A stretch of DNA of 64,000 bases from the NCBI GenBank assembly GCA_964487925.1, contig CAZASZ010000003.1, positions 738-64,737 on the forward strand. Reading direction: 5' to 3'. Positions 16,066 through 55,230 of this stretch are shown piece by piece. The DNA comes from an uncultured Gammaproteobacteria bacterium (GTDB lineage: Bacteria > Pseudomonadota > Gammaproteobacteria > SZUA-140). Each line of letters opens with the position of its first letter. The first letter of the stretch is position 1. A program made the position numbers and the translations under genes. The notes under the pieces are model-generated. The model made no database searches and had not been told where the DNA came from. It saw only the letters and a program-made list of their open reading frames with translations.

Positions 16066-16067
16066 CG

Positions 16068-17612
16068 GTGACCGGCGGACAGCAACCCATGTCCATCTCC
16101 GACCTCGCGACCGATCAGTCGATACCGATGAACGAAGCGGCGACAACACTGACCATTCCCTTCGCGTTCGCCAAACGTCACGGTGTGCTCGTAACACCAT
16201 CGCACGAAGGTCCGCCGACGGTGCTGATGCGTCACGGGTTTTCACCGCTCGCCCTGGCGGAACTCGGCCGAAATATCCCGACCGGCTTCAAACTTCGCTG
16301 CATCTCTGCGGACGAATTCGATAAGACCTTGCGTTCGGCCTACGAGGACAATAGCAGTCAAAGCATGGCCATTATGGGTGAGGTCGGTGAAGACATGGAC
16401 CTCAACAGCATTGCCCAGGCATTGCCCGAACCACAGGATCTGCTCGAAAGCGATGACGACGCGCCGGTCATCCGGCTCATCAATGCGCTATTCACCGAGG
16501 CCGTCAAGGAAAATGCCTCCGATATCCACGTCGAGCCCTTCGAGTCCAGACTGCTCGTCCGTTTCCGGGTCGATGGCGTCCTCAGAGAGATCCTCGAACC
16601 GGCCCGCGTGCTGGCGCCTATCCTTGTCTCTCGAATCAAGGTCATGGCAAAGCTCGATATCGCCGAAAAACGCCTGCCTCAAGACGGCCGAATCTCGCTA
16701 CGCATCGCCGGCCGAGCCGTCGACGTCCGCGTCTCGACCATGCCGGCCGGTCATGGTGAGCGCGTCGTCATGCGTCTACTCGACAAACAGGCGGGGCGTA
16801 TCGATCTCGAACGACTTGGGATGGCGCCCCATGACCTACGGTCTATCAACGAAGTTATTCAACGGCCACACGGCATCATCCTGGTCACAGGCCCAACCGG
16901 TTCCGGTAAGACGACCAGCCTCTACGCCATGTTGAGCCGACTCAATAACCACATCAGCAATATCATGACGGTTGAGGACCCGATCGAATACTATCTGGAC
17001 GGTATCAGTCAGACCCAGGTTCAGACCAAGGTCGACATGAGCTTTGCGCGAGGCCTTCGGGCCATCCTGCGTCAGGACCCGGACGTCGTCATGGTCGGTG
17101 AGATCCGTGACCTCGAGACCGCAGAGATCGCGGTCCAGGCCAGTCTGACGGGTCACCTCGTGCTGTCGACACTTCACACCAACAGCGCCACCGGCGCCAT
17201 CGTGCGCATGCGAGACATGGGTGTAGAGGCCTTCCTGCTGTCATCTAGCATCGTCGGCATCATCGCCCAGCGCCTGCTCCGGCTGCTCTGCCCCGAATGC
17301 AAGACGGCCTATGAACCCAATCGTGAGGATTGCGAGAAACTCAACATCCCGTTCGAGGAAGGCCGAGCCATCTATCACTCGGTCGGCTGTCCGCATTGCA
17401 AGGGGATGGGTTACATCGGCCGGACCGCGATCTTCGAGGTCGTGACGATCAACGACCAGATGCGTACGATGATCCACGACGGCAGCTCAGAACAGACGCT
17501 AGAGGCCGCCGCGCGTCGTCGCGGCCCCGGGATTTACGATGATGGTATGCGCCGCGTCCTGAGCGGCGAAACCTCGGTCGATGAACTGCTGCGCGTCATC
17601 CATGGTGCCTGA
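16068..17612 (+). CDS. gspE: type II secretion ATPase
   Basis: Walker A GPTGSGKTT; Asp box, His box and a tetracysteine motif (CPECK...CPHCKG) as in GspE. Confidence 0.96.
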   Translation: MTGGQQPMSISDLATDQSIPMNEAATTLTIPFAFAKRHGVLVTPSHEGPPTVLMRHGFSPLALAELGRNIPTGFKLRCISADEFDKTLRSAYEDNSSQSMAIMGEVGEDMDLNSIAQALPEPQDLLESDDDAPVIRLINALFTEAVKENASDIHVEPFESRLLVRFRVDGVLREILEPARVLAPILVSRIKVMAKLDIAEKRLPQDGRISLRIAGRAVDVRVSTMPAGHGERVVMRLLDKQAGRIDLERLGMAPHDLRSINEVIQRPHGIILVTGPTGSGKTTSLYAMLSRLNNHISNIMTVEDPIEYYLDGISQTQVQTKVDMSFARGLRAILRQDPDVVMVGEIRDLETAEIAVQASLTGHLVLSTLHTNSATGAIVRMRDMGVEAFLLSSSIVGIIAQRLLRLLCPECKTAYEPNREDCEKLNIPFEEGRAIYHSVGCPHCKGMGYIGRTAIFEVVTINDQMRTMIHDGSSEQTLEAAARRRGPGIYDDGMRRVLSGETSVDELLRVIHGA

Positions 17613-17614
17613 TC

Positions 17615-18832
17615 ATGGGAGCTTATTCCTACATCGCCCTCGATCAACGTGGGCGCCAACGTAAGGGAGTTATTGAAGGCGATACACCGCGTCAGATCCG
17701 CCAGAAGTTGCGCGATCAGGGGCTTGCCGCAACCTCGTTAATCGAAATCGCCGAACAGGAAAAGGCCGCCGGCCCCCGGACAGGTCTGGGTAGACGGCCA
17801 GCCAACACCGCTGACCTTGCCCTCGTGACGCGCCAACTCGCCACGCTTGTGGGCTCGGGTCTGCCGCTCGAAGAATCGCTCCGTACAGTCGCGGAACAAT
17901 GTGAAAGACCCCGACTTAAAGGCATGATCGTCGCTATCCGCTCGCGAATCATGGAGGGTCAGTCCTTTGCTACGGCGCTCAACGACTTTCCCCGCGTCTT
18001 TTCAGATCTCTACCGCGCCACGGTCTCCGCTGGTGAGCAATCGGGACATCTCGAGGGTGTGCTGGACCGCCTCGCGGACTATACGGAGGAGCACCAGGCT
18101 ACTCGACAACGAGTCGTGCTATCCCTGATCTACCCTATCCTCGTTCTGGTCGTTGCCATACTGGTTGTAGCTCTGTTACTGGCCTATGTCGTGCCTCAGG
18201 TCGTATCCGTGTTCTCGGACATGGGTCAGGAACTTCCCGCCTTGACACAGGCCATGATCGCGGCTAGCGACTTCATTCGCGCACAAGGCCTATTTGTACT
18301 GGCTTTAACAGTGTCCATCGTTTTGGTCGCTCGAATTCTCCTGCGCCGGCCTCGGATCAAACAGGCCGTACATCGTTTCTGGCTCGCCATGCCCTTGATC
18401 TCCGGTCTCGTCAAGGGCATGAACGCAGCCCGCTTCGCACGCACGCTCAGCATCCTGTCGGCCAGTGGCGTCCCGGTCCTCGACGCCTTGCACATCGCGG
18501 CTCAGGTCGTGACTAATCTGCCGATGCGCAACGCTGTCGATATGGCTGCCCGCCAGGTTCGGGAAGGGGCCTCGCTCCACGTCTCGCTCGAGCGTAGCGG
18601 TTATTTTCCGCCGCTGACCGTGCAGCTCATTGCGAGCGGCGAGGCCAGTGGAAAACTCGATCTCATGCTTGAGCGCGCGGCCAACAGCCAGGAACGCGAA
18701 CTCGATGCCTTGATCAAGACCATGACCGGCCTGTTCGGCCCGCTTATGATCCTGGGAATGGGTGGCATGGTCCTGCTGATCGTGCTCGCTATCCTGATGC
18801 CTATCTTCAACCTCAATCAGCTCCTCGTCTAA
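17615..18832 (+). CDS. gspF: type II secretion inner-membrane platform protein
   Basis: 405 aa. Two repeated GspF cytoplasmic domains and three TM helices; follows gspE. Confidence 0.94.
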   Translation: MGAYSYIALDQRGRQRKGVIEGDTPRQIRQKLRDQGLAATSLIEIAEQEKAAGPRTGLGRRPANTADLALVTRQLATLVGSGLPLEESLRTVAEQCERPRLKGMIVAIRSRIMEGQSFATALNDFPRVFSDLYRATVSAGEQSGHLEGVLDRLADYTEEHQATRQRVVLSLIYPILVLVVAILVVALLLAYVVPQVVSVFSDMGQELPALTQAMIAASDFIRAQGLFVLALTVSIVLVARILLRRPRIKQAVHRFWLAMPLISGLVKGMNAARFARTLSILSASGVPVLDALHIAAQVVTNLPMRNAVDMAARQVREGASLHVSLERSGYFPPLTVQLIASGEASGKLDLMLERAANSQERELDALIKTMTGLFGPLMILGMGGMVLLIVLAILMPIFNLNQLLV

Positions 18833-18857
18833 CGCAATCTTTCAGAGAGAAATCGCC

Positions 18858-19274
18858 ATGTCATTTGTGCAAACACGCGCCACTTCAAGATCCCGAAAAC
18901 AACGCGGCTTCACGCTGATCGAAGTCCTGGTCGTCGTCGTGATCCTCGGTATCCTCGCCGCCATCATCGTCCCGAATATCATGGACAAACCCGGCTTGGC
19001 CCGCATCACCAAGGCCAAGTCCGATATCCGTGCGGTCGAGGCCGCCCTGAATATGTACCGTCTCGATAACCACAACTACCCGACGACCGACGAGGGTCTA
19101 GCCAAGCTCGTCGGCAAATACCTGCCGCGCCTGCCGATGGACCCTTGGGACCGGGAATACCTCTACCTGTATCCGGGTGTGCAATCCGAGGTCGATGTCT
19201 ATACCCTGGGTCGTGACGGCCAGGAAGGCGGCCAGGATGAAGACGCCGATATCGGCAACTGGGACCTCAACTAA
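18858..19274 (+). CDS. gspG: type II secretion major pseudopilin
   Basis: Prepilin signature ...KQRG|FTLIEVLVVVVILGILAAIIVPNIM; GspG-like C-terminus with a calcium-binding region (DPWDREY). Confidence 0.95.
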   Translation: MSFVQTRATSRSRKQRGFTLIEVLVVVVILGILAAIIVPNIMDKPGLARITKAKSDIRAVEAALNMYRLDNHNYPTTDEGLAKLVGKYLPRLPMDPWDREYLYLYPGVQSEVDVYTLGRDGQEGGQDEDADIGNWDLN

Positions 19275-19295
19275 ACACGGCGGCCGTAGCCCATC

Positions 19296-19856
19296 ATGAC
19301 CGCCTACTGGACGCTGCCTCACGGCCGGCTGGTCACACCATGGCGCCGGGTACAGAAGGGTTTCACGCTCCTTGAGGTTCTCGTGGTGGTCTTTATCGTC
19401 GGAATCATTTTGAGCGTGGCCGTGATCAGCATCCCTGCCGATAAAGAAAAGGCTCTGCAGACCGAGGCTGAGCGTATCGACGCTCTGATCGGCCTGGCCC
19501 AGCAGGAGGCCATCATCCGCGACCGTGAGCTGGCGCTGGAGGTCAAATCCGATGGCTATCGTTTCCTGATCCAGGACGAGGCATCGTGGACGCCCATGCC
19601 CGACTCGAACTTCAGGCCCAGGTCATTGGAGGAGCCGATGCAGCTTGAGCTCGTCATGGAAGGCATCCCTCTCCTGACACGCGATGAAGGACAAGACTCG
19701 GATGGCGAAGACGACCAAGCGCCGCGGATTTTCATCCTGTCCAGTGGAGAGCTCTCCCAGTTTACGATCAGTGTGGCACACCCGGAGGTCCCCGTTGAGT
19801 TCCTGATCCACGGTGACATTTCCGGTCGCCACTCCGTGGAGAAAAAGGCCAAATGA
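19296..19856 (+). CDS. gspH: type II secretion minor pseudopilin
   Basis: Prepilin motif QKG|FTLLEVLVVVFIVGII; operon position. Confidence 0.85.
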   Translation: MTAYWTLPHGRLVTPWRRVQKGFTLLEVLVVVFIVGIILSVAVISIPADKEKALQTEAERIDALIGLAQQEAIIRDRELALEVKSDGYRFLIQDEASWTPMPDSNFRPRSLEEPMQLELVMEGIPLLTRDEGQDSDGEDDQAPRIFILSSGELSQFTISVAHPEVPVEFLIHGDISGRHSVEKKAK

Positions 19857-20260
19857 TAGGCCACTGGCCCCCGCTGGCCCGCGCCCGCTGCAACGGATTC
19901 ACGCTGCTCGAAATCATGGTCGCGCTCGCCGTACTGGCCATCGCCCTGGCCGCGATCGTGACCGAGTCCAGTCAGAACATTAAGAACCTGATACGCCTGC
20001 GCGAGCACACTATCGCCCACTGGGTGGCAATGAATCGAATCGCCGAACTCCAGCTCCAACCCGCGTGGCCCGCGACTGGTCAGGCATCCGGAGTCGTCGA
20101 GATGGCCCACGGTAGTTGGCGCTGGGAGACCCGCGTCACGGACACCGACGACGATGCCGTGCGACGACTGGACATCGACGTCCTAAAAGACACGCCTCGC
20201 AATGATGACGTACTGGAGCATTTGATCTCCTATCTTGGACAACCGATGGTGAACCCCTGA
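19853..20260 (+). CDS. gspI: type II secretion minor pseudopilin
   Basis: Prepilin motif CNG|FTLLEIMVALAVLAIALAAIV; 135 aa; 4-nt overlap with gspH. Confidence 0.85.
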   Translation: MIGHWPPLARARCNGFTLLEIMVALAVLAIALAAIVTESSQNIKNLIRLREHTIAHWVAMNRIAELQLQPAWPATGQASGVVEMAHGSWRWETRVTDTDDDAVRRLDIDVLKDTPRNDDVLEHLISYLGQPMVNP

Positions 20261-20262
20261 CC

Positions 20263-20943
20263 ATGGTAGCAACCGTTGTAGGCAAACGTATGCGTGCCCC
20301 AAGACGGACGCCGAGCGCAGCTGGTGAATGGGGATTCACGCTGATCGAGCTGCTGGTGGCGCTGGCAATCTTCGCGATTCTCGCGGTTATGGCCTACCGC
20401 GGGCTGGATGTAGTCCTGACCACGGACCAGGTGGGTCAGGCCCAGGCCAAGCGGCTTGCGCGCCTGCAAACCGCCTATCGGCTCGTGGGTAGAGATGTCG
20501 AACAAATTGTGGCCCGTTCCATACGTGACCAGTTCGGCGACAGACAGCCGGCGCTCATCGGCGATTCCAGCACAATCGAAATGTCCCGAATCGGCTGGAG
20601 AAACCCCGCGCACTTGCCGCGAAGCCGGATTCAACGGGTCGGCTATCAGCTTACAGAGGACAACCTGCTCCGGTCGAGTTGGGGTGTCCTCGATCGTGCC
20701 CAGGATACGGAACCGACCGGATCGGAGGTCCTGAATGATATCGATGAACTCGGCTTTCGTTACTTCGACTTAGAGCAAGGATGGCAAACCCACTGGCCAC
20801 TCGACAATGAGGATGCCTCCCGACTGGTCCTACCCGCGGCCGTTGAGGTGACGCTTACCTTGAAGGACTTTGGCAACATCGTGTGGCTCTTCCGTGTCCC
20901 TTCCGGCAGCGTTCCGACGCCGACCAACAATGGTAGCAACTAA
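20263..20943 (+). CDS. gspJ: type II secretion minor pseudopilin
   Basis: Prepilin motif EWG|FTLIELLVALAIFAILAVMAYRGLD; 226 aa. Confidence 0.85.
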   Translation: MVATVVGKRMRAPRRTPSAAGEWGFTLIELLVALAIFAILAVMAYRGLDVVLTTDQVGQAQAKRLARLQTAYRLVGRDVEQIVARSIRDQFGDRQPALIGDSSTIEMSRIGWRNPAHLPRSRIQRVGYQLTEDNLLRSSWGVLDRAQDTEPTGSEVLNDIDELGFRYFDLEQGWQTHWPLDNEDASRLVLPAAVEVTLTLKDFGNIVWLFRVPSGSVPTPTNNGSN

Positions 20944-20944
20944 T

Positions 20945-21892
20945 ATGCCGGTAATTAGTGCGCCGAAACCCCGACGCGAGCAACGCGGTATCGCCCTGAT
21001 CACGGCCATGCTCGTGACTGCCATCGCCGCGACCGCGGCTGTCAACATGGCCTCGCGACAGCAGATCGACTTTAGACGCAGCGAAAATCTGTTCGGCGCC
21101 GACCAGGGTTATCTGTTCGCCCTCGGGGTCGAGTCCTGGGCAAGCCAGATTTTGCGCCGAGACGCCCAGGAGGGCAACATCGACAGCCTTGATGAAGACT
21201 GGGCCGTCACTCTGCCGCCGATCGCCGTCGAGGGCGCGGTCCTATCGGGCGGCATCGAGGATCTGCAGAGCCGCTTCAACCTCAACAATCTGATCAAAAA
21301 CAACGCGGTCAGCGAACCCGACCTCAAACGCTTTAAACGACTCTTGAAAAATCTCGAAATCGATGAAGCCGTTGCCGATGCCGTGGTAGACTGGCTCGAC
21401 AGTGATACCTCGCCGTTGCTCCCCGACGGTGCCGAAGACGTGGACTACTTGATACTGAGTCCAGGGTATCGCACGGCCAACGCCCCATTGGTCAGCCCGT
21501 CGGAGCTATTGCTGATAAAAGGAATCGACCAAGCCGCGTTCGAGAAACTCGAGCCCTATGTACAATGCGTCCCTGTGCGGACCTCAATCAATGTCAATAC
21601 CGCGCCGCCGGCCGTGCTGATGATGCTGGCCGATGGCCTGACACAGGCCGACGCGGAACAAATTCGGGATGACAGGACCGACAAGCACTTCGACAGCGCT
21701 TCCGAGTTTACGAATCTGCCGGTCATCAAGGGTCTTGGACAAAACTTCACGGATATCAGCGTAACGAGTCACTATTTCATGGTCAGAGCAAATACGGAAT
21801 ACGGCCACAGCCGAGTCCAAGCCACCATTATCCTGAGCCGGAATGATAAGGGCCAGACCGAGACCATATTGCGTTCTCAGGGGGGCTACTGA
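20945..21892 (+). CDS. gspK: type II secretion minor pseudopilin
   Basis: QRGIALITAMLVTAIAATAA N-terminus (the GspK-type non-cleavable pseudopilin). Start taken at the ATG 1 nt after the gspJ stop. Confidence 0.85.
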   Translation: MPVISAPKPRREQRGIALITAMLVTAIAATAAVNMASRQQIDFRRSENLFGADQGYLFALGVESWASQILRRDAQEGNIDSLDEDWAVTLPPIAVEGAVLSGGIEDLQSRFNLNNLIKNNAVSEPDLKRFKRLLKNLEIDEAVADAVVDWLDSDTSPLLPDGAEDVDYLILSPGYRTANAPLVSPSELLLIKGIDQAAFEKLEPYVQCVPVRTSINVNTAPPAVLMMLADGLTQADAEQIRDDRTDKHFDSASEFTNLPVIKGLGQNFTDISVTSHYFMVRANTEYGHSRVQATIILSRNDKGQTETILRSQGGY

Positions 21893-21895
21893 GCC

Positions 21896-23131
21896 ATGCG
21901 CCCAACGCTGTTGATTCATATCGTCTCGGGTCCCGAAGAGTCCATCGAGTGGCTTACCTGCAGCGGGGATCAAACGGTCAGTTGCGCCGATTTCGGCCAA
22001 GGTACGCTCGATGATCTCGGTGACCTCGGTCATGGCCGTGAAGTCAGGGTTCTGATCTCGGGACCGGATATCGTCCTGACGGCCGCTCGGGTCCCCGGCC
22101 GCCAACGCCAGCAAATCGCCGCCGCGCTGCCCTATCTGATCGAAGATCAGTTCATTGAGGAGGTCGAGGCCATCCATTTCGCGCTTGGGCCCCGAGACCC
22201 GGACGGCCTCGTGCATGCCGCCGCCATCAGCCACGATCGCATGCAATTTTGGCGGCAACGGCTCAGCGAGGCCGGCATCGAAGCGCAATCGATCAGTCCG
22301 GGCATCCTCTACCTACCATTCGACGACAGTGGTTGGACCGTGGTCGAACACCACGGATTGATGTTCGTCCGGAGCAGCCCGACATCAGGCTTCGCATGCA
22401 CCCCGGAGCACCTCGAACCCTTGCTGAGCCAGCTTTCGGAGACCGAGCGACCTGAACTCATTCGACTACATACTTTTTCCGATTCCGAACCGACCCAGTT
22501 GACATCCAACGATCAGACGATCGGCGGTATTGCGAGTGAATGGCAGCATCATGATGCCCATCTACTTGAGGTCATGACCGAGTCAATAACGAAAAAGGGA
22601 CAGATCGATCTCCTGCAAGGCCCCTACGGGCGCAGTACGAAGCTCAATCAAGTTTGGCTCAAGTGGCGGCCGGCCGCCATACTCGCCGGACTGCTCGTGA
22701 CGGCCTTGTTGGCCAACGGCGTATCCCGCGTACTGGAACTCGGCACCCGTAATGACCAGCTTCATCAGGAAATCCGCACGATATATCGAGATGCATTCCC
22801 CAACGAGAAGCGCATCGTCAACCCCCGCGTACAAATGCAGCGCCATCTAAACGCCCTGCGCGAAGGCTCGGGGCATACATCGGCGACTTGGATCATGGAC
22901 ACCTTGGACCGGACAGGCCCCGTTCTCACGGCTACATCCGGCCTTGTTCTGCAACGACTCACCTATAAAAACGAAACCTTCTCGCTGCGCCTCGACCTGC
23001 CCAACCTGGGCAGCGTCGAACAACTCAAGAACAAGTTGTCGGTGCTAGAGGACATTAACGTCGAGATCGTAACCGCTAGCTCCAACAACGGGCACGTCAC
23101 GGCAAATCTACTGCTGAAACCTAAGAGCTAG
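21896..23131 (+). CDS. gspL: type II secretion inner-membrane protein
   Basis: 411 aa. Cytoplasmic actin-like domain plus a single TM (WRPAAILAGLLVTALLANGV) and a periplasmic domain; position between gspK and gspM. Confidence 0.85.
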   Translation: MRPTLLIHIVSGPEESIEWLTCSGDQTVSCADFGQGTLDDLGDLGHGREVRVLISGPDIVLTAARVPGRQRQQIAAALPYLIEDQFIEEVEAIHFALGPRDPDGLVHAAAISHDRMQFWRQRLSEAGIEAQSISPGILYLPFDDSGWTVVEHHGLMFVRSSPTSGFACTPEHLEPLLSQLSETERPELIRLHTFSDSEPTQLTSNDQTIGGIASEWQHHDAHLLEVMTESITKKGQIDLLQGPYGRSTKLNQVWLKWRPAAILAGLLVTALLANGVSRVLELGTRNDQLHQEIRTIYRDAFPNEKRIVNPRVQMQRHLNALREGSGHTSATWIMDTLDRTGPVLTATSGLVLQRLTYKNETFSLRLDLPNLGSVEQLKNKLSVLEDINVEIVTASSNNGHVTANLLLKPKS

Positions 23132-23134
23132 AAC

Positions 23135-23629
23135 ATGCGCCGAGCCTTTGACAACCTGAGCCAATCGGAACGTACTTTGATCATTGTAGCGAGCGTCGTC
23201 CTGCTCGCCGGACTGATCTATGGTTTGGTCTGGCGCCCGTTGCAGGTCAACCTTGTAGCGCAGGAGAATAAACTCGAACAGAATCTGAAGACGGTTAAAT
23301 GGATGCGGCAATCCGCTCAGGAGCTCGCCCGGATCAAGGCTCAGACAACCGGCCAGGGGCAAAGTGGCGCCCGCCAGTCCATCCTCTCCTTGGTGGACCA
23401 GACCGCGCGCAAGGCCGGACTCGGAGACACCATCAAACGCGTCGAGCCGGCCGGCCAGGGCAAGGTCCGAATCCGTATGGAGTCCGTCGCCTTCGACGAC
23501 ATGATTGCCTGGCTTGAAGGTCTCCTGAGGTCATCGGCGATCGCCATCGAGAGTATCGCCGTAGACCGCAGTGATCTACAGGGCCTTGTCGATGCCCACC
23601 TCACGCTATCTGATCCGACTGCGCAATGA
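23135..23629 (+). CDS. gspM: type II secretion inner-membrane protein
   Basis: 164 aa, N-terminal TM (LIIVASVVLLAGLIYGLVW); position after gspL. Confidence 0.82.
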   Translation: MRRAFDNLSQSERTLIIVASVVLLAGLIYGLVWRPLQVNLVAQENKLEQNLKTVKWMRQSAQELARIKAQTTGQGQSGARQSILSLVDQTARKAGLGDTIKRVEPAGQGKVRIRMESVAFDDMIAWLEGLLRSSAIAIESIAVDRSDLQGLVDAHLTLSDPTAQ

Positions 23630-24420
23630 GGGCACACAAATGGCATTTTCTTGTTTTCGGGATTCTGATCTACGTGGTCGCCCTGGTCGTAACCTTTCCG
23701 GCGAATCGCGCCTATGGATGGATCAGACCCACGCTCGGATCAAACATCCCGGTGCAGCTATATGGCGTCAATGGTACGGTCTGGTCGGGTACGGCAAGCC
23801 AAGCGCAGCTATTCGATTATGCAGTCAACGACCTGCATTGGAGACTCCACCCACTTGCCCTACTTCTCGGCAGTTTGGAAGTGGCCCTCGACGCGCCTTT
23901 GTCCGGGGGACGCGCCACCGGCACGCTGATTCGCCCTTTGACCGGACAGGGGCTCTCGATCGAGACACCGCATATTGATCTGCCTCTCGCCACATTGTTG
24001 GATGCCAACCGTTTTCCAACCCCCATCGCAGGACGCCTGACGGGCGATCTGACTCGGGTCGACATCACCGATAGTGGTGAGTTTCAAGTCGATACAGGCG
24101 ACCTTTTGATCCGGGATTTAACTGTGCAGGCACTGGGTCAGCTCGCACTCGGGGAATTCAAAGTCAGGATTGAGCACGATACCAAAGGCGCCCTACTGAT
24201 CAAGACAACGGATACCGGCGGCCCACTGAAATTGAACGCGACCGTGACATTTGCGAACAACGATCGCTATATGCTGATCGCGGAGCTCAGCGCACGGAAC
24301 AATCGCGACGCCGTATTGATGCAAACGCTGCGCATGCTGGGGGCCCCCGACCGCACAGGGACATACAGGATTCAGCGCCAGGGCTCGATCAAGCAGGACT
24401 TGGCCCTTTTGGGTGGTTAG
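23626..24420 (+). CDS. gspN: type II secretion protein N
   Basis: 264 aa, N-terminal TM, GspN-like; last gene of the operon, 4-nt overlap with gspM. Confidence 0.75.
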   Translation: MRAHKWHFLVFGILIYVVALVVTFPANRAYGWIRPTLGSNIPVQLYGVNGTVWSGTASQAQLFDYAVNDLHWRLHPLALLLGSLEVALDAPLSGGRATGTLIRPLTGQGLSIETPHIDLPLATLLDANRFPTPIAGRLTGDLTRVDITDSGEFQVDTGDLLIRDLTVQALGQLALGEFKVRIEHDTKGALLIKTTDTGGPLKLNATVTFANNDRYMLIAELSARNNRDAVLMQTLRMLGAPDRTGTYRIQRQGSIKQDLALLGG

Positions 24421-37712: not shown

Positions 37713-38228
37713 CTATAGCTGAGGCGGCAGAATGGGCTCGTCCTGGGTGTCCTGACCGACGGGCACCGCGCCCTTGATAAGGGCGTGCGCCCGTCTGACA
37801 TCGATCATTTCAGAGGCCCCCCGAAACTCGCCGTCGACCGGAGTCATGACAATATATTGTGTTTCGGCAGGCTTGAGATTGAACTCACGCGAATGAACCC
37901 GTGTATCGAAGGCATGCTTCGGTCCCCAGGTGGTATCTGAATACACCTTGACCCGAACCTTACCGGGCAGCAATCGCAACAAGATGTATTCCCCCTTGCC
38001 CATCGCCATGAGATGCTTGCGCCCGACCTCAACCTGAATACGGTTATCGGCGGCGCCCATGTAGCGTTCGGTCCGGGGCCGAATAAAATAGACCTTGGTG
38101 GCCAAACCATCGCTCTTAGGTCGCAGCAGTGGATGGTCGCGGTCGACGGTCGTCACCGTGCAGGCGCCGAGCGCCACCGCCATCAAAACCAGGATCACAC
38201 CGACCCGCCACGTCGCCTTTTTCAACAT
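37713..38228 (-). CDS. hypothetical lipoprotein
   Basis: Signal peptide plus lipobox (LMAVALGAC|TV). No recognisable catalytic motif; possibly DUF2846-like. Start taken at MLKKATW. Confidence 0.6.
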   Translation of the reverse strand: MLKKATWRVGVILVLMAVALGACTVTTVDRDHPLLRPKSDGLATKVYFIRPRTERYMGAADNRIQVEVGRKHLMAMGKGEYILLRLLPGKVRVKVYSDTTWGPKHAFDTRVHSREFNLKPAETQYIVMTPVDGEFRGASEMIDVRRAHALIKGAVPVGQDTQDEPILPPQL

Positions 38229-38306
38229 AGCCTTCGCCCCAAACCCCGAAAACCGAAAGTGTAACACGACAACCCAGCTCTCATCGCACTTGGCACCGAC
38301 CGCCCC

Positions 38307-45733: not shown

Positions 45734-47685
45734 GACGGTGCTCCTATCGAAAGTGTTGTTCGTGTGCCCTCAGTCACCCTAAAAAAGTTTTTCACATCAT
45801 CGATTGAGCTGGTCCGGGTCATGGGTGGCAGGTTATTCAGAAAGACCCGCCCGTAGCTGCGGGACTTCAGTCTGGGATCGCACAACACGAGCACGCCGAA
45901 GTCGTCCTGATCACGGATCAACCGTCCCGCGCCCTGTTTGAGCGCCAGCACGGCCTGAGGCAATTGCAGCAGCCGAAAGGCGTTTTCGCCTTGATTGGCC
46001 AACTGAGTCTGACGGGCCTGAAAGACCGGGTCGTCGGGGCTGAAGAACGGCAATTTGTCGATGATCACGCAAGACAGGTGCTCACCGCGCACGTCCACAC
46101 CCTCCCAGAAACTCGAGGTCCCGAGCAGCACGGCGTTACCCAAACTGCGGAAGCGTTCGAGCAGCAAACCGCGCGGCCCCTCGCCCTGAACGAGCAACGG
46201 ATAGGCTAGCGACATCGAGCGCAGACGTTCGGCAGCAAAACGCAAAGCCTGATGGCTCGTAAAGAGTAAAAAAGTCCGGCCACGGCTCGCCGTCACAATC
46301 TCGGCTGCGAGATCAACGACCGCATCGGTGTAGGACCGGCTACCGGGATCGGGCAGCCCCTGGGGCATATACATCAGGGCCTGATTGGCATAATCAAAGG
46401 GGCTCGCCCACTGCCCGGTCTGCGGTTCTTCAATACCCAGGCGGGCCGTAAAATGGCTGAAATCGGTCCCTATGGACAGGGTAGCCGACGTGAAAACCCA
46501 GGCGCAGTCGTAGCGCTCCATTTGCGCACGAAAACCCTCCGCACAACTCATCGCGGTCTGATGCAGGCGAAATGCATGACGACTGGTCTCGTACCAACTG
46601 ACCAGGTTCTCGTCATCGCCGCCGATAACCTGAGCGAGATCGTCGCGCGCCACGGCACAGCGCTGACGGCAAGTTTCAAGCCCCTTGCTACGCTCGCTAT
46701 GGAGCTCAAGCGCGCCATAAAATTCCTGAATACGCGCGCCGAGCTCGGCCATAGCAGCCTGCATGCCCGGTAACGCAACCGCGGCACGCCAGGCACCGCG
46801 CGTATCGCCTTTGCCAAAGAGCGCGCGCACGGCATCCACCGCAGCGATCAAATGAGTTGCACTGTCGCCGATCTCGCGGGCATCGCCAACCTCCGCGGCC
46901 TGACACTGGGCGGCGTCGCGCGCCAGCGACTGCAATTGGTGGGCGCTGACCGTACGCCCGAAGAACTGACTCGCGAGCTCCGGCAACTGATGTGCCTCGT
47001 CGACGATGACGGCCTCGCAGTTCGGCAATAGCTCGCCGAAACCCTCCTCGCGCAAGCGCATATCGGAAAGCAGCAGGTGATGATTGATCACGACGATATC
47101 GGCAGCCTGGGCCGCCCGACGGGCCTTGACGACATGGCATCCCTGGTACTCGGGACACTCGGCGCCCAGACAATTCTCGGCCGTCGAAGTAACCTGATAC
47201 CAGATAGGGGCATCGGCCGGGACGTCGTCGACCTCCTCGACATCCCCACTGTGGGTGCGGCCACTCCAGCTCGAGATTCGGTGTAACTGGGCCTGTTGAC
47301 CGCGGGGCAACTGTCCCGATTGCTCTGCGATCTCAAGGCGGTATCGGCACAGATAGTTGCTACGCCCCTTGAGCATTGCCATGACGGGCCGAACACCGAG
47401 GGCGGCGCAGACCGTGGGCAGGTCGCGCCGGAAAAGCTGCTCCTGAAGGGTCCGGGTGCCGGTTGAGACCAGCGTACGCCCACCGCCAAGACAGACCGGC
47501 ACGAGATAGGCAAAGGTCTTGCCGGTACCGGTACCGGCCTCGGTCACGAGCGCGTCCTTGGCAGCCAACGCGGCCTCGACGGACTCAGCCATGGCCTGTT
47601 GCTCGGGACGTGCCCGAAATCCGGGGATATGCGACTGAAGTGGCCCCGTATCTCCGAGTGCATCGGAGGCACTTAACATGCTCAA
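45730..47685 (-). CDS. yoaA: DinG-family ATP-dependent DNA helicase (YoaA-like)
   Basis: Walker A EAGTGTGKTFAYL, DEAH box VIVDEAHQL, Fe-S cysteines (CLGAECPEYQGC) and C-terminal helicase motifs; 651 aa. Adjacent to tsaB as yoaA-yeaZ are in E. coli. Confidence 0.85.
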   Translation of the reverse strand: MSMLSASDALGDTGPLQSHIPGFRARPEQQAMAESVEAALAAKDALVTEAGTGTGKTFAYLVPVCLGGGRTLVSTGTRTLQEQLFRRDLPTVCAALGVRPVMAMLKGRSNYLCRYRLEIAEQSGQLPRGQQAQLHRISSWSGRTHSGDVEEVDDVPADAPIWYQVTSTAENCLGAECPEYQGCHVVKARRAAQAADIVVINHHLLLSDMRLREEGFGELLPNCEAVIVDEAHQLPELASQFFGRTVSAHQLQSLARDAAQCQAAEVGDAREIGDSATHLIAAVDAVRALFGKGDTRGAWRAAVALPGMQAAMAELGARIQEFYGALELHSERSKGLETCRQRCAVARDDLAQVIGGDDENLVSWYETSRHAFRLHQTAMSCAEGFRAQMERYDCAWVFTSATLSIGTDFSHFTARLGIEEPQTGQWASPFDYANQALMYMPQGLPDPGSRSYTDAVVDLAAEIVTASRGRTFLLFTSHQALRFAAERLRSMSLAYPLLVQGEGPRGLLLERFRSLGNAVLLGTSSFWEGVDVRGEHLSCVIIDKLPFFSPDDPVFQARQTQLANQGENAFRLLQLPQAVLALKQGAGRLIRDQDDFGVLVLCDPRLKSRSYGRVFLNNLPPMTRTSSIDDVKNFFRVTEGTRTTLSIGAPS

Positions 47686-48179
47686 ACCGTGCTTGTCTGG
47701 TTGTCCCAGACCTCATCGGTGACCAAGCCCTCTTCACGATTCCAGGCCATGCGCCCGACGCGCCTAAAGCGCGCCACGGTCATAGCCCCGCGCCGATTCT
47801 TAGACGTCGAATCGAGGGCCTCGCGGACCTCGGCACGATCGGCCTCGTAGATCTCAAACGGCTCCAGATCGGCATCCATGAGCACAAGCACGACAAGATC
47901 CCAATCCTGATCCATCTTGAACTGTCCGATTCGATGCCCGGATTTGGATTCATCGAAGATCGTACGGCCCTTGATCAAGACCCGTTTACCCGCACGCGCC
48001 CCCCGGCCAATGGCATCACAACCGGGATCCGTACTGGCCTCAAGATCAAGCAAGCGAATGGCATCGTGGAGGCAGACCTCACCGCTAACCCCCGCCAAGG
48101 GCTTACCGGTCGCGCGATAATAATCCGCCGCCAGTTTGCGAGCCTCAGCGATCAGCTTGTCGACGGAATAGACACCCAT
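47682..48179 (-). CDS. hypothetical protein, translationally coupled upstream of yoaA
   Basis: 165 aa, soluble, not recognised. Its stop overlaps the helicase start by 4 nt. Central region ...DAIGRG...RVLIKGR...WDLVVLVLMDADLEPFEIYEA might be nuclease-like, but that is speculative. Confidence 0.45.
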   Translation of the reverse strand: MGVYSVDKLIAEARKLAADYYRATGKPLAGVSGEVCLHDAIRLLDLEASTDPGCDAIGRGARAGKRVLIKGRTIFDESKSGHRIGQFKMDQDWDLVVLVLMDADLEPFEIYEADRAEVREALDSTSKNRRGAMTVARFRRVGRMAWNREEGLVTDEVWDNQTSTV

Positions 48180-51462: not shown

Positions 51463-52830
51463 ATGCAAGCGTCCATCATCGATTCCGCCTACGAGCTCCT
51501 CGACGAAACCATCCTCTACCACAATGGCCAGCCCGTAGGTACGACGGCGGCGGTCCCCAGCAATCTCTCGGCCGTCAATTACGGCGACTGTTTTATTCGC
51601 GACTTCTTTCCCTCCGCACTTGTCTTTCTCATGAAGGGCGAACCCGAAATCGTCCGTAACTTCCTGACCACTGTGCTGTCCCTATGCGATCAGCAGGAAC
51701 ACATGCCCGGCCATGAATATGCGGAAGGCCTGATGCCGGCCAGTTTCGAGGTCGCAGCCACCGAGGATGGCGGCAGCAAGCTCGTGGCTGACTTCGGTGA
51801 TCGCGCCATCGGTCGCGTAGCGCCCGTGGACTCGGCAACTTGGTGGATGATCCTGCTCCGGGTCTACTCACTGGCAACCGGGGACATCGAGCTGGCGCAC
51901 AGTGAACGCTTCCAGGAAGGCATGCGCAAGGTCCTCGGGCTCTATCTGCATGAGAGCTTCGAGATATCCCCGGCCATGCTGGTACCGGACGCAGCTTTCA
52001 TGATCGATCGCCGGATGGGGGTTTACGGCCACCCACTCGAGATCCAGGCACTGTTCTACGGCATGCTGGCCACGGCCCAGGAACTGCTACTACCCGGACC
52101 GAAGAACGACGGCCTGCTGCGAATCATCAACAAACGCATGCCGGCGCTCTGCTCCTATGTCCGACTGTTCTATTGGCTCGACGAACAGCGCCTCAACGAG
52201 ATCCACCGCTACAAGTCCGAGGAGTTCGGCTGGGACGCGCAAAACCTGCTCAATATCTACCCCGAAACCATACCGGACTGGCTCGACGGCTGGCTGTGCC
52301 GTAACGATGGCTACATGGTCGGCAATATCGGTCCCGGTAAAATCGACTTCCGTTATTTTGCGGGCGGCAACCTGCTCGCAATCATCTTCGGGCTTACGAC
52401 CGACGCGCAGGGCGACATGATCATGCGCCTCTACGAATCACACTGGGACAGCCTAACCGGCCGGATGCCGTTCAAACTCGTCTACCCGGCGGTGAGCGGT
52501 CAGGAGTGGGCCCTGCTGACCGGATGCGACCCAAAGAATTCGCCCTGGTCCTATCACAACGGCGGTAACTGGCCCTGCCTACTCTGGATGTTTACCTGCG
52601 CGGCCATCCGCACGGGGCACGCCGATCTGGCGGCGCGGGCCGTCGAGGTTGCCGCGGCGCGTCTGCAGCGGGACCACTGGCCCGAATACTATGATGGCCA
52701 GATGGGCTCACTGATCGGTCGCCGTGCCAACCTGAACCAGACCTGGACCGCGACGGCGCTGATTATCGCCCATCAGCTACTCGACAATCCGGATAGCCTG
52801 GCCGTCTTCGAGGCCCTAATCAGCACATGA
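51463..52830 (+). CDS. alkaline/neutral invertase, glycoside hydrolase family 100
   Basis: Hallmark GH100 blocks: FIRDFFPSALVFL, DFGDRAIGRVAPVDSATWWMILLRVY, FMIDRRMGVYGHPLEIQALFYGML and YHNGGNWPCLLWMF. Size 455 aa, similar to cyanobacterial InvA/InvB. Confidence 0.85.
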   Translation: MQASIIDSAYELLDETILYHNGQPVGTTAAVPSNLSAVNYGDCFIRDFFPSALVFLMKGEPEIVRNFLTTVLSLCDQQEHMPGHEYAEGLMPASFEVAATEDGGSKLVADFGDRAIGRVAPVDSATWWMILLRVYSLATGDIELAHSERFQEGMRKVLGLYLHESFEISPAMLVPDAAFMIDRRMGVYGHPLEIQALFYGMLATAQELLLPGPKNDGLLRIINKRMPALCSYVRLFYWLDEQRLNEIHRYKSEEFGWDAQNLLNIYPETIPDWLDGWLCRNDGYMVGNIGPGKIDFRYFAGGNLLAIIFGLTTDAQGDMIMRLYESHWDSLTGRMPFKLVYPAVSGQEWALLTGCDPKNSPWSYHNGGNWPCLLWMFTCAAIRTGHADLAARAVEVAAARLQRDHWPEYYDGQMGSLIGRRANLNQTWTATALIIAHQLLDNPDSLAVFEALIST

Positions 52831-53639
52831 TCGCTATCAGCCAACTTCGTTTGCCCGCCGTTTCACCGGAGGGAATGCACGCCATTGACCTGCTCAACCA
52901 GGACGAACCCGACATCCGCGCGCTGACCGAGTGCATCCTCCGCGATTCGATCAGCGCGCTGGCACTGATCAAGTACGCCAATTCACCGCTCTTCCGGCGC
53001 CCCACGCCGATCGACTCCGTCCATGGCGCCATCCGCGTCCTCGGACTCCGAAACGTCCGTAGCGCCTTACTCGTCGCGACCATTCGCGGCCTGGCTGAAA
53101 ACCTACCACAGAACTGCTGGATCATCGCACGACACTGCACCGACTGCGCCTTCCTGGCCGCGCGTTTGGTCCAAAATATTCAACCCGAGATCGTCGACGA
53201 GATGGCCTTTCTGGGCCTGATCCATGACATGGGCATGCTGATTCTGGCAAGCAACTTCCCTGAAGCCTATAGCCGGATCATGGACCTCTCGATCAGCGAG
53301 GGTGAAGTCATCGGCAACCTCGAAGAGGCCGAGTTCGGGGTACAGCATGATGACATCATCGAACGCCTCTTCAAGGATTTTCGGCTACCCGTTGAGCAGA
53401 TCAACCTGCTGTCGTGTTACCACCGTGAGGTCTGTTTGCCCGATGACGACCCGCAACTCATTCGCCGCATGGTCCTCGACCTGGCCCACGCCATCTGGAC
53501 CGACAGCCTCGGTGAGATAGCCTTCCACGAGACCTGCGGGGATCAGGACATCGAAGGACTCACAGCCCGACTCGGGATCATGCCCGACGACCTGACGGCT
53601 ATACGGGACGAGTACATAAGACTCAAAGACGCAAGCTGA
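52827..53639 (+). CDS. HDOD-domain signalling protein (stand-alone)
   Basis: 270 aa. HD-related output domain pattern (...GLIHDMGMLILASNFPE...HCTDCAFLAARL...). The start codon overlaps the invertase stop (ATGA). Confidence 0.7.
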   Translation: MIAISQLRLPAVSPEGMHAIDLLNQDEPDIRALTECILRDSISALALIKYANSPLFRRPTPIDSVHGAIRVLGLRNVRSALLVATIRGLAENLPQNCWIIARHCTDCAFLAARLVQNIQPEIVDEMAFLGLIHDMGMLILASNFPEAYSRIMDLSISEGEVIGNLEEAEFGVQHDDIIERLFKDFRLPVEQINLLSCYHREVCLPDDDPQLIRRMVLDLAHAIWTDSLGEIAFHETCGDQDIEGLTARLGIMPDDLTAIRDEYIRLKDAS

Positions 53640-53700: not shown

Positions 53701-54501
53701 ATGTGTCCGCCCCGCACCCGAAGTAAACGGCCCACGAAAACGTTCACTACCCACCTGTTCCTAATTTGCGCCCTATTAATCCCGAGCTTCTCCTACGCCG
53801 ATGGCCTGGTACTCGAGGTCATCCCGCTCCACCACCGCTCCTCGTCAGCGATCGCGCCCATGGTCCGTGGCTTCATCGCCAAGGGTGGGACCATCAAGGC
53901 GGCCGACGACAAACTCATGGTACGCACGAATCCGAGCAACCTGAAAGAACTGCGCAAACTCGTCGCCAAATTGGATGTACCGCTGCGCCACCTGCTCATC
54001 ACGGTGAGACAATTGTCAGGTGAACGCGCGCGGCGAGCGGGGACGGTCGGTGAACTCCGTGTCTGGCAAACCGAGAATTCTGACGACGCCAACCGGACAC
54101 AGCAGGTTCAGGTGCTGGAAGGCAAGGAGGCCTTTATCGACGTGGGCCGCGAGATCCCCATCAGCGACTTTGCCGTTTCGCAATCGCAAACCGGGACGAT
54201 TTTCGAACAAAAAACCCGCTATATCGGGGCGACTACGGGGTTCTCCGTCCGCCCTCACCTCGATGGCGATACCGTGAATATCGATATTACCGCCACTCAA
54301 AAACGCCAATCCGGCGTCGCTTCACCACCTGAGTTCGAGACCCAGGCGGTACATACCACCGCATCGGGAAAATTGGGCGAGTGGATAACCATCGGAGCCA
54401 GCGCTGCGCGGGAAAGGACCCCAGGAATCATCGATTATTCGACCTCAAAGCGGGACGAACAGGACCGACGGACGCTGCTGAGAGTGACCATGTCCCCATG
54501 A
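53701..54501 (+). CDS. secreted secretin-N-domain protein lacking the pore-forming secretin C-domain
   Basis: Signal peptide (LFLICALLIPSFSYA|DG). Then LVLEVIPLHHRSSSAIAPMVRGFIAKGGTIKAADDKLMVRTNPSNLKELRKLVAKLDVP, a classic secretin N1-type module. The C-terminal part (GFSVRPHLDGDTVNIDITATQ...) resembles only the first strands of a secretin domain. 266 aa in total. Confidence 0.6.
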   Translation: MCPPRTRSKRPTKTFTTHLFLICALLIPSFSYADGLVLEVIPLHHRSSSAIAPMVRGFIAKGGTIKAADDKLMVRTNPSNLKELRKLVAKLDVPLRHLLITVRQLSGERARRAGTVGELRVWQTENSDDANRTQQVQVLEGKEAFIDVGREIPISDFAVSQSQTGTIFEQKTRYIGATTGFSVRPHLDGDTVNIDITATQKRQSGVASPPEFETQAVHTTASGKLGEWITIGASAARERTPGIIDYSTSKRDEQDRRTLLRVTMSP

Positions 54502-54514
54502 GCCAATTCTTTGC

Positions 54515-55102
54515 TCAGTTGTCAGCAGATGCCTTGTTTGAGCTCATCGTTTTTCGGTCGGAATCTTCTGCCTCCGTCCTCCGGGGCCGATAGCGACGAA
54601 CCTTGCCGCTATCTGAATACTTGGCATCGTACATCGCTTGATCCGCCAGACTGATCAACCCCGCAGCATTCTCGCTGTCATCCGGATATATCGAGTAACC
54701 CATGCTGACTTCCACGTTAATCACGTGTCCATCGATTTCCAAGGGCTGATTTAAAGTATTGATCATTCGCTCCACGGCCGGAAGCACCTCGCTTTCGTCC
54801 TCTAGCTCGCTGAGCAAGACAATGAATTCGTCGCCGCCAAGTCGCGCCACCGTGTCACCGCCCCGAACAGAAGTCCTGAGACGTCGCGCAACCTCTATGA
54901 GTACGCGATCGCCGGCGGCATGGCCGAAATTATCGTTAATCGGTTTGAAGTTATCCAGGTCGGCAAAACAGACCACCAACAAACGTCTAGTGCGGGCGTT
55001 TCGGGCAATGGCCAAGTTGAGGCGGTCAAACATCAGGGTACGGTTAGGCAGTTGTGTTAGCGCGTCGTGATAGGCCTTGCCCAAATGAGGCAACGTCGAC
55101 AA
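54515..55102 (-). CDS. minimal diguanylate cyclase (GGDEF domain only)
   Basis: DALTQLPNR start of the GGDEF domain at residue 13; GGDEF active site (RLGGDEFIVLL); I-site-like RxxD (RGGD). 195 aa with no sensor domain. Confidence 0.85.
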   Translation of the reverse strand: MSTLPHLGKAYHDALTQLPNRTLMFDRLNLAIARNARTRRLLVVCFADLDNFKPINDNFGHAAGDRVLIEVARRLRTSVRGGDTVARLGGDEFIVLLSELEDESEVLPAVERMINTLNQPLEIDGHVINVEVSMGYSIYPDDSENAAGLISLADQAMYDAKYSDSGKVRRYRPRRTEAEDSDRKTMSSNKASADN

Positions 55103-55163
55103 AACTCCAGGTCAATTGAGATTCTGCTCCTAAACCACCAATAAACTTCCGATAGAACAGATT

Positions 55164-55194
55164 GAAAAAAAGGGCCTCAAATGAGGCCCTTTTT
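55164..55194 (-). terminator. intrinsic terminator of htpG (bidirectional hairpin)
   Basis: AGGGCCTCA-AA-TGAGGCCCT, flanked by AAAAAAA on one side and TTTTGG on the other. On the minus strand the hairpin is followed by UUUUUUU, 37 nt after the htpG stop. Confidence 0.8.
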
Positions 55195-55230
55195 GGTTGA
55201 AGACTCCGAAGAATCTCTACTATTTCGGTT

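Follow-up and report, generated by a model that had tools for sequence, protein, structure and literature searches.

The 64-kb window analyzed here (by which we mean the whole stretch of DNA) carries a gene for a 266-aa secretin homologue, the short secretin, lying between genes for a stand-alone HDOD protein and a stand-alone GGDEF diguanylate cyclase (Table 1). Gene order, read across the whole stretch, is glmS, glmU, the atp operon, parAB, gidB, a complete gspD-N type II secretion system (T2SS), rho, hem genes, argH, cyaA, ATP sulfurylase, GH100 invertase, HDOD, short secretin, GGDEF (convergent), htpG, pgm and glcDEF. The T2SS operon (14062-24420) comprises gspD, E and F followed by H, J, K, L, M and N, and encodes a GspD of 667 aa. 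Since this operon adjoins gidB-parA-parB and the atp operon, the window corresponds to an origin-proximal region of the core chromosome. A preliminary description of the locus regarded the short secretin as an orphan secretin N module and grouped it with its two neighbors in a module linked to cyclic di-GMP (c-di-GMP). Our analysis instead identifies it as an intact, exported and conserved secretin-fold protein that consists of an N3-type domain and the gate/inner-barrel core, with shortened outer-sheet strands.

The open reading frame (ORF) begins, as previously described, with a signal peptide: its n-region is basic, residues 18-30 form the hydrophobic core, and the cleavage site is of the A-x-A type. 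Lipoprotein anchoring was considered and rejected, because the Cys of LFLIC follows an Ile, so that no lipobox is formed, and this Cys is not conserved. The secretin N module noted in the preliminary description was recovered as a Pfam Secretin_N match (PF03958) on residues 39-95 (E 1.7e-8, 34.9 bits vs. a cut-off of 28.2); the domain is N3-equivalent by position and N1-like by sequence. The rest of the protein amounts to more than the "few strands" of secretin domain first reported, since Pfam Secretin (PF00263) matches residues 124-232 (E 1.1e-8, 35.3 bits vs. a gathering threshold of 27.5), a stretch that spans the whole inner barrel including the Gate 1 and Gate 2 equivalents. Both matches are far beyond chance, although that to Secretin covers the profile only in part (positions 4-120 of 169).

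The fold was predicted with AlphaFold2 (AF2) from a 54-sequence alignment (predicted template modeling score 0.68; the predicted local distance difference test, pLDDT, is given in Table 1). The prediction, which had been proposed as a check on the domain boundaries, returned a secretin fold with an N-domain and a core, and no unrelated domain. Residues 37-91 form a beta-alpha-beta-beta-alpha unit, followed by strands at 97-106, 132-139, 144-147, 151-162, 165-176, 179-188, 191-204, 211-224, 228-234 and 256-264, with low-confidence stretches at about 107-131 and about 235-255. A Foldseek comparison of this model with the PDB gave 38 chains at E<=1e-3, every one of them a secretin (probability 1.0), and the family profile matched 25 distinct PDB sequences, again all secretins, with GspD/XcpQ as the best (E 7e-16). 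The short secretin has the secretin core fold with Gate 1 between two hinge glycines, and its N3-type Secretin_N domain stands immediately N-terminal to the C-domain; its identity to canonical secretins is only 14-18%.

Table 1. Positions in the window of the short-secretin gene, the parts of its product and the two flanking genes.
Feature	Position	Strand	Basis
Short secretin homologue gene (precursor, 266 aa)	53701..54501	+	ORF; Pfam Secretin_N and Secretin; conserved short family; AF2 pLDDT 80.9
Sec signal peptide, aa 1-34, cleavage SYA↓DG	53701..53802	+	Sole family-level hydrophobic segment (18-30); Ala33 ~90% conserved; AF2 helix 15-30
Single Secretin_N domain, aa 37-95	53809..53985	+	PF03958; AF2 beta-alpha-beta-beta-alpha, pLDDT >95; aligns with pIV N3 and with GspD N1 and N3
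Short first outer-sheet strand, aa 97-106	53989..54018	+	AF2; aligns with start of pIV secretin domain, about half that length
Hydrophilic variable linker, aa 107-131, at site of canonical beta-lip	54019..54093	+	pLDDT 50-59; no counterpart of pIV 199-234
Inner-barrel and gate core of secretin, aa 132-234	54094..54402	+	
Gate 1 equivalent, G149-G180, both hinge glycines and conserved R173	54145..54240	+	Hidden Markov model (HMM) alignment to pIV
Hydrophilic loop, aa 235-255, at site of the amphipathic helical loop (AHL)	54403..54465	+	No AHL regex match; pLDDT <50 at 245-249
Last beta-strand, aa 256-264	54466..54492	+	AF2; protein stops 2 aa on, no S-domain
Stand-alone HDOD gene (270 aa), neighbor outside the unit	52827..53639	+	Pfam HDOD; ATGA overlap with upstream GH100
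Stand-alone GGDEF diguanylate cyclase gene (195 aa, TTG start), neighbor outside the unit	54515..55102	-	Domain and motifs

To locate the gates, M13/f1 pIV and the GspD of the window were aligned with the family HMM, and the published pIV landmarks were read off (PMC8563730). In this alignment, the N-domain of the short secretin corresponds to pIV N3, G149 and G180 to the Gate 1 hinge glycines G267 and G297, R173 to the conserved gate arginine R293, and residues ~195-216 to Gate 2; "GEWITIG" of the short secretin falls on "GQTLLLGG" of pIV. G149, G180 and R173 are invariant among the close homologues (alignment A1). In the wide family, conservation peaks in the gate and inner-barrel region and not in the N-domain, a distribution that speaks against the earlier idea of a free N-module.

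Homologues of this size are numerous. A word-indexed search returned 55 close homologues with 51-99% identity, nearly all of them 230-287 aa long (one is a 176-aa fragment), and an exhaustive phmmer search of 1.84 billion cluster representatives gave 1848 matches at E<=1e-3, 1043 of them at E<=1e-10. The best 150 phmmer matches are all <=372 aa, most of them 246-303 aa, and another 736 proteins at E<=1e-10 came from a search with the family profile; among these, the best 120 have lengths of 231-307 aa. Named members belong to Plasticicumulans, Propionivibrio, Azonexus, Rhodocyclaceae, Burkholderiales and uncultured Gammaproteobacteria. They are annotated at NCBI only as "secretin N-terminal domain-containing protein" or as hypothetical, none of the NCBIfam models claims them, and a literature search for mini, short or orphan secretins found nothing relevant. 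The scores of the short secretin against TIGR02517 (GspD; 35.4 bits vs. a cut-off of 351.35) and TIGR02515 (PilQ; 39.2 bits vs. 284.35) are not those of full-length matches. The short secretins are a large, uncharacterized family of 250-300-aa secretin homologues of Gamma- and Betaproteobacteria. A mobile, phage or plasmid origin was rejected, as tblastn found no match in 72,556 plasmids or 50,697 phages and a fold search of BFVD returned only full-length pIV-type proteins.

The size of the family also decides whether the gene is what is left of a full-length secretin after truncation and decay, a case that the preliminary description had allowed for in case the homologues proved to be full-length secretins. 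With a length under half that of GspD and a partial Pfam Secretin match, a single copy might suggest such a pseudogene. Yet the homologues are all short, and hundreds of them share its length and architecture together with invariant core residues; neither the signal peptide nor the final strand is damaged, and the same deletions are common to Beta- and Gammaproteobacteria. Decay is thus extremely improbable, and family-wide conservation of length led us to reject it.

The segments in which the family departs from other secretins are those by which secretins enter the membrane. Every secretin solved so far has shown the AHL, the best-conserved region of these proteins (PMC6532946); it has been called a family signature and essential for membrane insertion (PMC8134430). 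Its motif (regex VPxLxxIPxxGxLF) occurs in 0 of 301 family members, whereas the positive controls GspD (position 576) and pIV (position 389) both match. The PF00263 match itself stops at profile position 120, just short of the AHL at ~133-146. The loop at the AHL site (235-255) has a near-constant length of 19-23 aa across the family and is 29% charged and 18% hydrophobic. Similarly, the short secretin has no counterpart of the hydrophobic beta-lip, the major membrane-spanning region, or of the upper half of the first strand of the outer barrel (pIV 199-234 for strand and lip together). At the lip site stands a linker, 25 aa long in this protein and from 19 to 60 aa in the family, that is 31% charged and 26% hydrophobic vs. 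10% and 43% for the equivalent segment of GspD; in the window GspD, the lip region occupies ~80 aa between the Secretin_N and Secretin Pfam matches. In a second AF2 model, made for a 34%-identical Betaproteobacterial member, the lip-site region (97-149) is predicted to be disordered, and both replacement loops are of low confidence in the two independent models.

Other parts of the chain agree with this picture. Hydropathy profiles gave no family-level hydrophobic segment beyond the signal peptide. No S-domain is present in the short secretin, which ends two residues past the last strand, and no N0 domain (PF21305) was found in it, the N-domain following directly on the signal peptide; the window GspD does have an N0 domain. 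As read from the sequence, Arg and Lys occur on the polar face of the first strand and of the last, the two faces of the last strand (256-264) being R/L/R/T (polar) vs. T/L/V/M. The outward-facing residues are polar or charged, and so are both replacement loops. Without the AHL motif and a hydrophobic lip, the short secretin is probably unable to form a canonical outer-membrane pore unaided, and to that extent the earlier judgment that it is too short for a pore holds.

RcpA, the secretin of the Tad system, has ~416 aa. It resembles the short secretin in having a single N-domain, but it keeps the AHL, depends on the pilotin TadD and has its gene in the tad operon (PDB 8ODN; PMC10499894). The smallest well-studied secretin, pIV of f1/M13 (PDB 7OFH; PMC8563730), has several elements that do not occur in the short secretin: an N0 domain that serves its partner in the inner membrane, an extracellular lip of 36 residues (199-234), the VPFLSKIPLIGLLF motif and aromatic girdles. 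Moreover, the pIV gene lies in a phage assembly operon, whereas the short-secretin gene is a chromosomal orphan. Among the structures closest to the short secretin are the N3 and C-domains of GspD/PulD/XcpQ (PDB 5WLN, 5W68, 5WQ7, 6HCG). GspD, however, is 650-760 aa long and includes N0-N2, a beta-lip of ~80 aa, the AHL and the S-domain, all absent from the 266-aa protein. In sequence and fold the short secretin belongs to the superfamily; lacking the AHL, the lip and any association with a secretion system, it is not a canonical secretin.

A further parallel is the truncated mitochondrial GspD of jakobids and heteroloboseans, which, like the short secretin, is naturally shortened and works outside a canonical bacterial T2SS operon (PMC8134430). 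This protein demonstrates that much-reduced secretins can still oligomerize and form pores (PMC8134430), and it lends some weight to the view that the short secretin is a genuine minimal gated channel of the outer membrane, inserted via divergent loops or with a partner encoded elsewhere, e.g., a lipoprotein, and serving a substrate that has nothing to do with the T2SS or type IV pili (T4P). Retention of the double-sheet core and gates, the shallow membrane insertion of secretins (PMC6532946; PMC10499894) and the up to 60 aa that Betaproteobacterial members keep at the lip position would all be in keeping with such a channel. The two truncations are, however, complementary: mitochondrial GspD keeps the AHL, which is called essential for insertion, and loses N3, whereas the short secretin keeps N3 and the gate core without AHL and lip. 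Taken with the lack of any hydrophobic segment past the signal peptide, the Arg and Lys on the polar face of the terminal strands and the missing pilotin-binding S-domain, this makes a minimal pore unlikely.

The genomic surroundings of the homologues give no hint of a partner machine. A search for related loci with alignment A1 yielded 3 genome loci and 7 metagenome loci, and neighborhoods were read at ~25 related loci representing about ten distinct contexts. In a syntenic group formed by the window, L002/L012 and L009/L020 (group A), the order is GH100, HDOD, either nothing or 6PGD genes, short secretin, a variable slot and htpG. In a second group of 14 loci (group B), the short secretin follows DUF7931 and converges on mutL. 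Betaproteobacterial loci (L013, L017/L018) have the order rmuC, Peptidase_M90, short secretin and DUF2238; in Rhodocyclaceae and others (L014-16, L029) AFG1/ZapE precedes the short secretin; and in one further lineage (L028) the gene stands between a divergent NlpC/P60 gene and an aminotransferase gene. Six different upstream neighbors were thus recorded (HDOD, DUF7931, Peptidase_M90, AFG1/ZapE, divergent NlpC/P60 and 6PGD), and no assembly genes of T2SS, T4P, type III secretion system (T3SS), Tad or filamentous phage were found in the flanks of the about ten distinct contexts. The short-secretin gene is always an orphan, without a neighbor conserved across the family.

These contexts bear on the proposed connection with the T2SS. 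The operon reported in the same window is indeed there and complete, but a link to it is not supported: the short-secretin gene lies 30 kb away, and none of its relatives is found near T2SS genes. A functional relationship could nevertheless take the form of an accessory or regulator of a canonical secretin (GspD or PilQ), either as an extra gated ring stacked under that secretin or by co-assembly with its N3 and gate region, which would modulate gating or leakiness; this comes near the mimicry of GspD N-domains suggested in the preliminary description. The genome of the window does encode a complete T2SS, the N-domain resembles N1 and N3 of GspD, and ring-on-ring stacking is normal for secretin N-domains. 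Against this, none of the about ten contexts shows synteny with a secretin system, identity to canonical secretins is so low that mixed rings are unlikely, and conservation centers on the protein's own gate and not on an interaction surface. We consider an accessory role rather improbable.

The same loci were used to evaluate the suggestion that HDOD, short secretin and the sensor-less GGDEF protein constitute one c-di-GMP-linked module. The arrangement in the window was described correctly: 61 nt separate the end of the HDOD ORF from the start of the short-secretin gene just downstream, and a 13-bp gap (54502-54514) separates the convergent short-secretin and GGDEF genes. The GGDEF protein is also as described, with an intact motif, an I-site RxxD and no input domain. 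PF00990 covers residues 10-163 (E 1.7e-49), the GGDEF motif is at 89-93 and RGGD at 80-83 (RxxD five residues upstream, the canonical I-site spacing), and the GTP- and metal-binding motifs DxLTxLPNR and FKxxNDxxGHxxGD (FKPINDNFGHAAGD at 52-65) are intact, so that the 195-aa protein looks catalytically competent from its motifs. With <=12 residues ahead of the domain, there is no room for a sensor. The neighboring protein carries Pfam HDOD on residues 17-199 (E 1.9e-30).

Adjacency of the three genes and a competent-looking cyclase with an I-site are in favor of such a module, as is an EAL gene that L013 and L017 carry ~5 kb away from the short-secretin homologue. That EAL gene, however, adjoins bipA and lies four genes off. 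By tblastn, GGDEF was detected only in the window; the same arrangement occurs in L027, a contig of the same strain, and PF00990 is absent from the precomputed Pfam gene tables of the other loci (~25). The three syntenic genomes have three different genes or gene sets in the slot between short secretin and htpG: GGDEF in the window (54502-55230), a sulfotransferase-like gene in L002 (8700-9980), and glycogen phosphorylase plus a small ORF in L009 (5457-8466). The nearest GGDEF relatives outside the species are short GGDEF proteins of 61-62% identity (e.g., from Gallionella), followed by PAS-GGDEF proteins, a pattern that would fit sporadic acquisition. HDOD, for its part, travels with GH100, to which it is ATGA-coupled; it adjoins the short secretin in only 2 of ~10 contexts, is absent beside the homologue outside two genomes, and in one syntenic genome is separated from it by two opposite-strand genes. 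No c-di-GMP riboswitch or other Rfam element scored above threshold in the region, and since the short-secretin and GGDEF genes are convergent, they form no operon. Synteny and the lack of a riboswitch led us to reject the module as very improbable, and we infer that the GGDEF and HDOD genes are unrelated neighbors in a variable slot of a core-genome region. A role of short secretin, GGDEF, HDOD or DUF7931 as defense components was likewise rejected, as PADLOC gave no match for any of the four.

One observation concerns these neighbors themselves. The GH100 gene encodes an alkaline/neutral invertase, and its ATGA overlap with HDOD (51463-53639 for the pair) points to translational coupling. 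Both syntenic metagenome-assembled genomes, L002 and L009, have kept the two genes together.

Taken together, we find it somewhat probable that the short secretin is an intact, Sec-exported relative of secretins reduced to the gate core, that it is expected to form a periplasmic ring, and that its GGDEF and HDOD neighbors are accidental. N3 together with the C-domain is the self-assembling unit of secretins, and a requirement of N3 for secretin assembly has been cited (PMC8134430). With the conserved residues of the family lying in the inter-subunit barrel and gate region, a gated ring would be expected from these two features: the short secretin would oligomerize into a gated, double-walled ring resembling the periplasmic part of a secretin. 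Such a ring would presumably stay in the periplasm, either soluble or peripherally attached, without spanning the outer membrane.

Several points weigh against a periplasmic ring. It is deduced from homology only, the structure predictions being of the monomer. The low-pLDDT loops could fold only on assembly or on contact with a membrane. In Betaproteobacterial members, up to 60 aa of G/S-rich sequence stand at the lip position and could represent a divergent lip, and a separately encoded partner, e.g., a lipoprotein, could anchor or insert the ring. Furthermore, the short secretin evolves much faster than its neighbors, which could mean relaxed constraint: within group A, identities are 56-65% for the short secretin, 69-72% for HDOD and 91-94% for GH100 and HtpG.

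To our knowledge, the term secretin denotes a giant portal of the outer membrane that in every case works for a dedicated machine, be it of secretion, pilus or phage. The short secretins are a conserved orphan family that kept the self-assembling N3 and gate core and shed every known membrane-insertion and machine-coupling element, which suggests that the secretin fold was reused for a different envelope function or that the family is a hidden accessory of known systems. We tentatively raise the possibility of "gate-only" secretins, in which a Sec-exported, gated double-walled ring, free in the periplasm or docked on another envelope structure, would act independently of T2SS, T4P, T3SS and Tad and be widespread in Beta- and Gammaproteobacteria. 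If true, this would be the first secretin-fold assembly other than an outer-membrane portal. The family also offers a natural minimal construct for secretin assembly and gating, and Plasticicumulans, Propionivibrio and Azonexus are cultured hosts in which it is open to testing.

The low identity of the short secretin across L002, L009 and the window could reflect fast evolution, diversifying selection or relaxed constraint. In group B, the DUF7931 gene (169-175 aa) lies directly upstream of the short secretin in 14 loci, among them L001 (7529-8038), L003, L005-L008, L011 and L021-L026. Where genes were called, it overlaps the short-secretin start by 38 nt, which is probably why the secretin precursor has a conserved N-terminus, "TPTCGGFISRY". 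A tblastn search for DUF7931 in the window gave nothing convincing (best E 0.25), no literature on DUF7931 was found, and by sequence it has no meaningful relative in the PDB.

Elsewhere in the window, two minus-strand ORFs (37713-38267, 184 aa; 47682-48179, 165 aa) matched no Pfam family at E<=1e-5. An Rfam match to the suhB/mmgR small RNA in the htpG-GGDEF intergenic region (55157-55219, minus strand) scored 22.1 bits vs. a gathering threshold of 41 (E 0.34) and is most likely due to chance. In Betaproteobacterial lineages, the homologue lies 10-14 nt downstream of an AFG1/ZapE ATPase gene (two lineages; L014, 4869-6813; L029, 4872-6804) or of Peptidase_M90 (MtfA-like; L013 and L017, 5210-6858), and at other loci genes for cell-wall enzymes occur nearby, namely an AmiB-type amidase in group B and NlpC/P60 with SLT_2 in L028. 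The proximity of ZapE, M90 and cell-wall genes may be coincidence.

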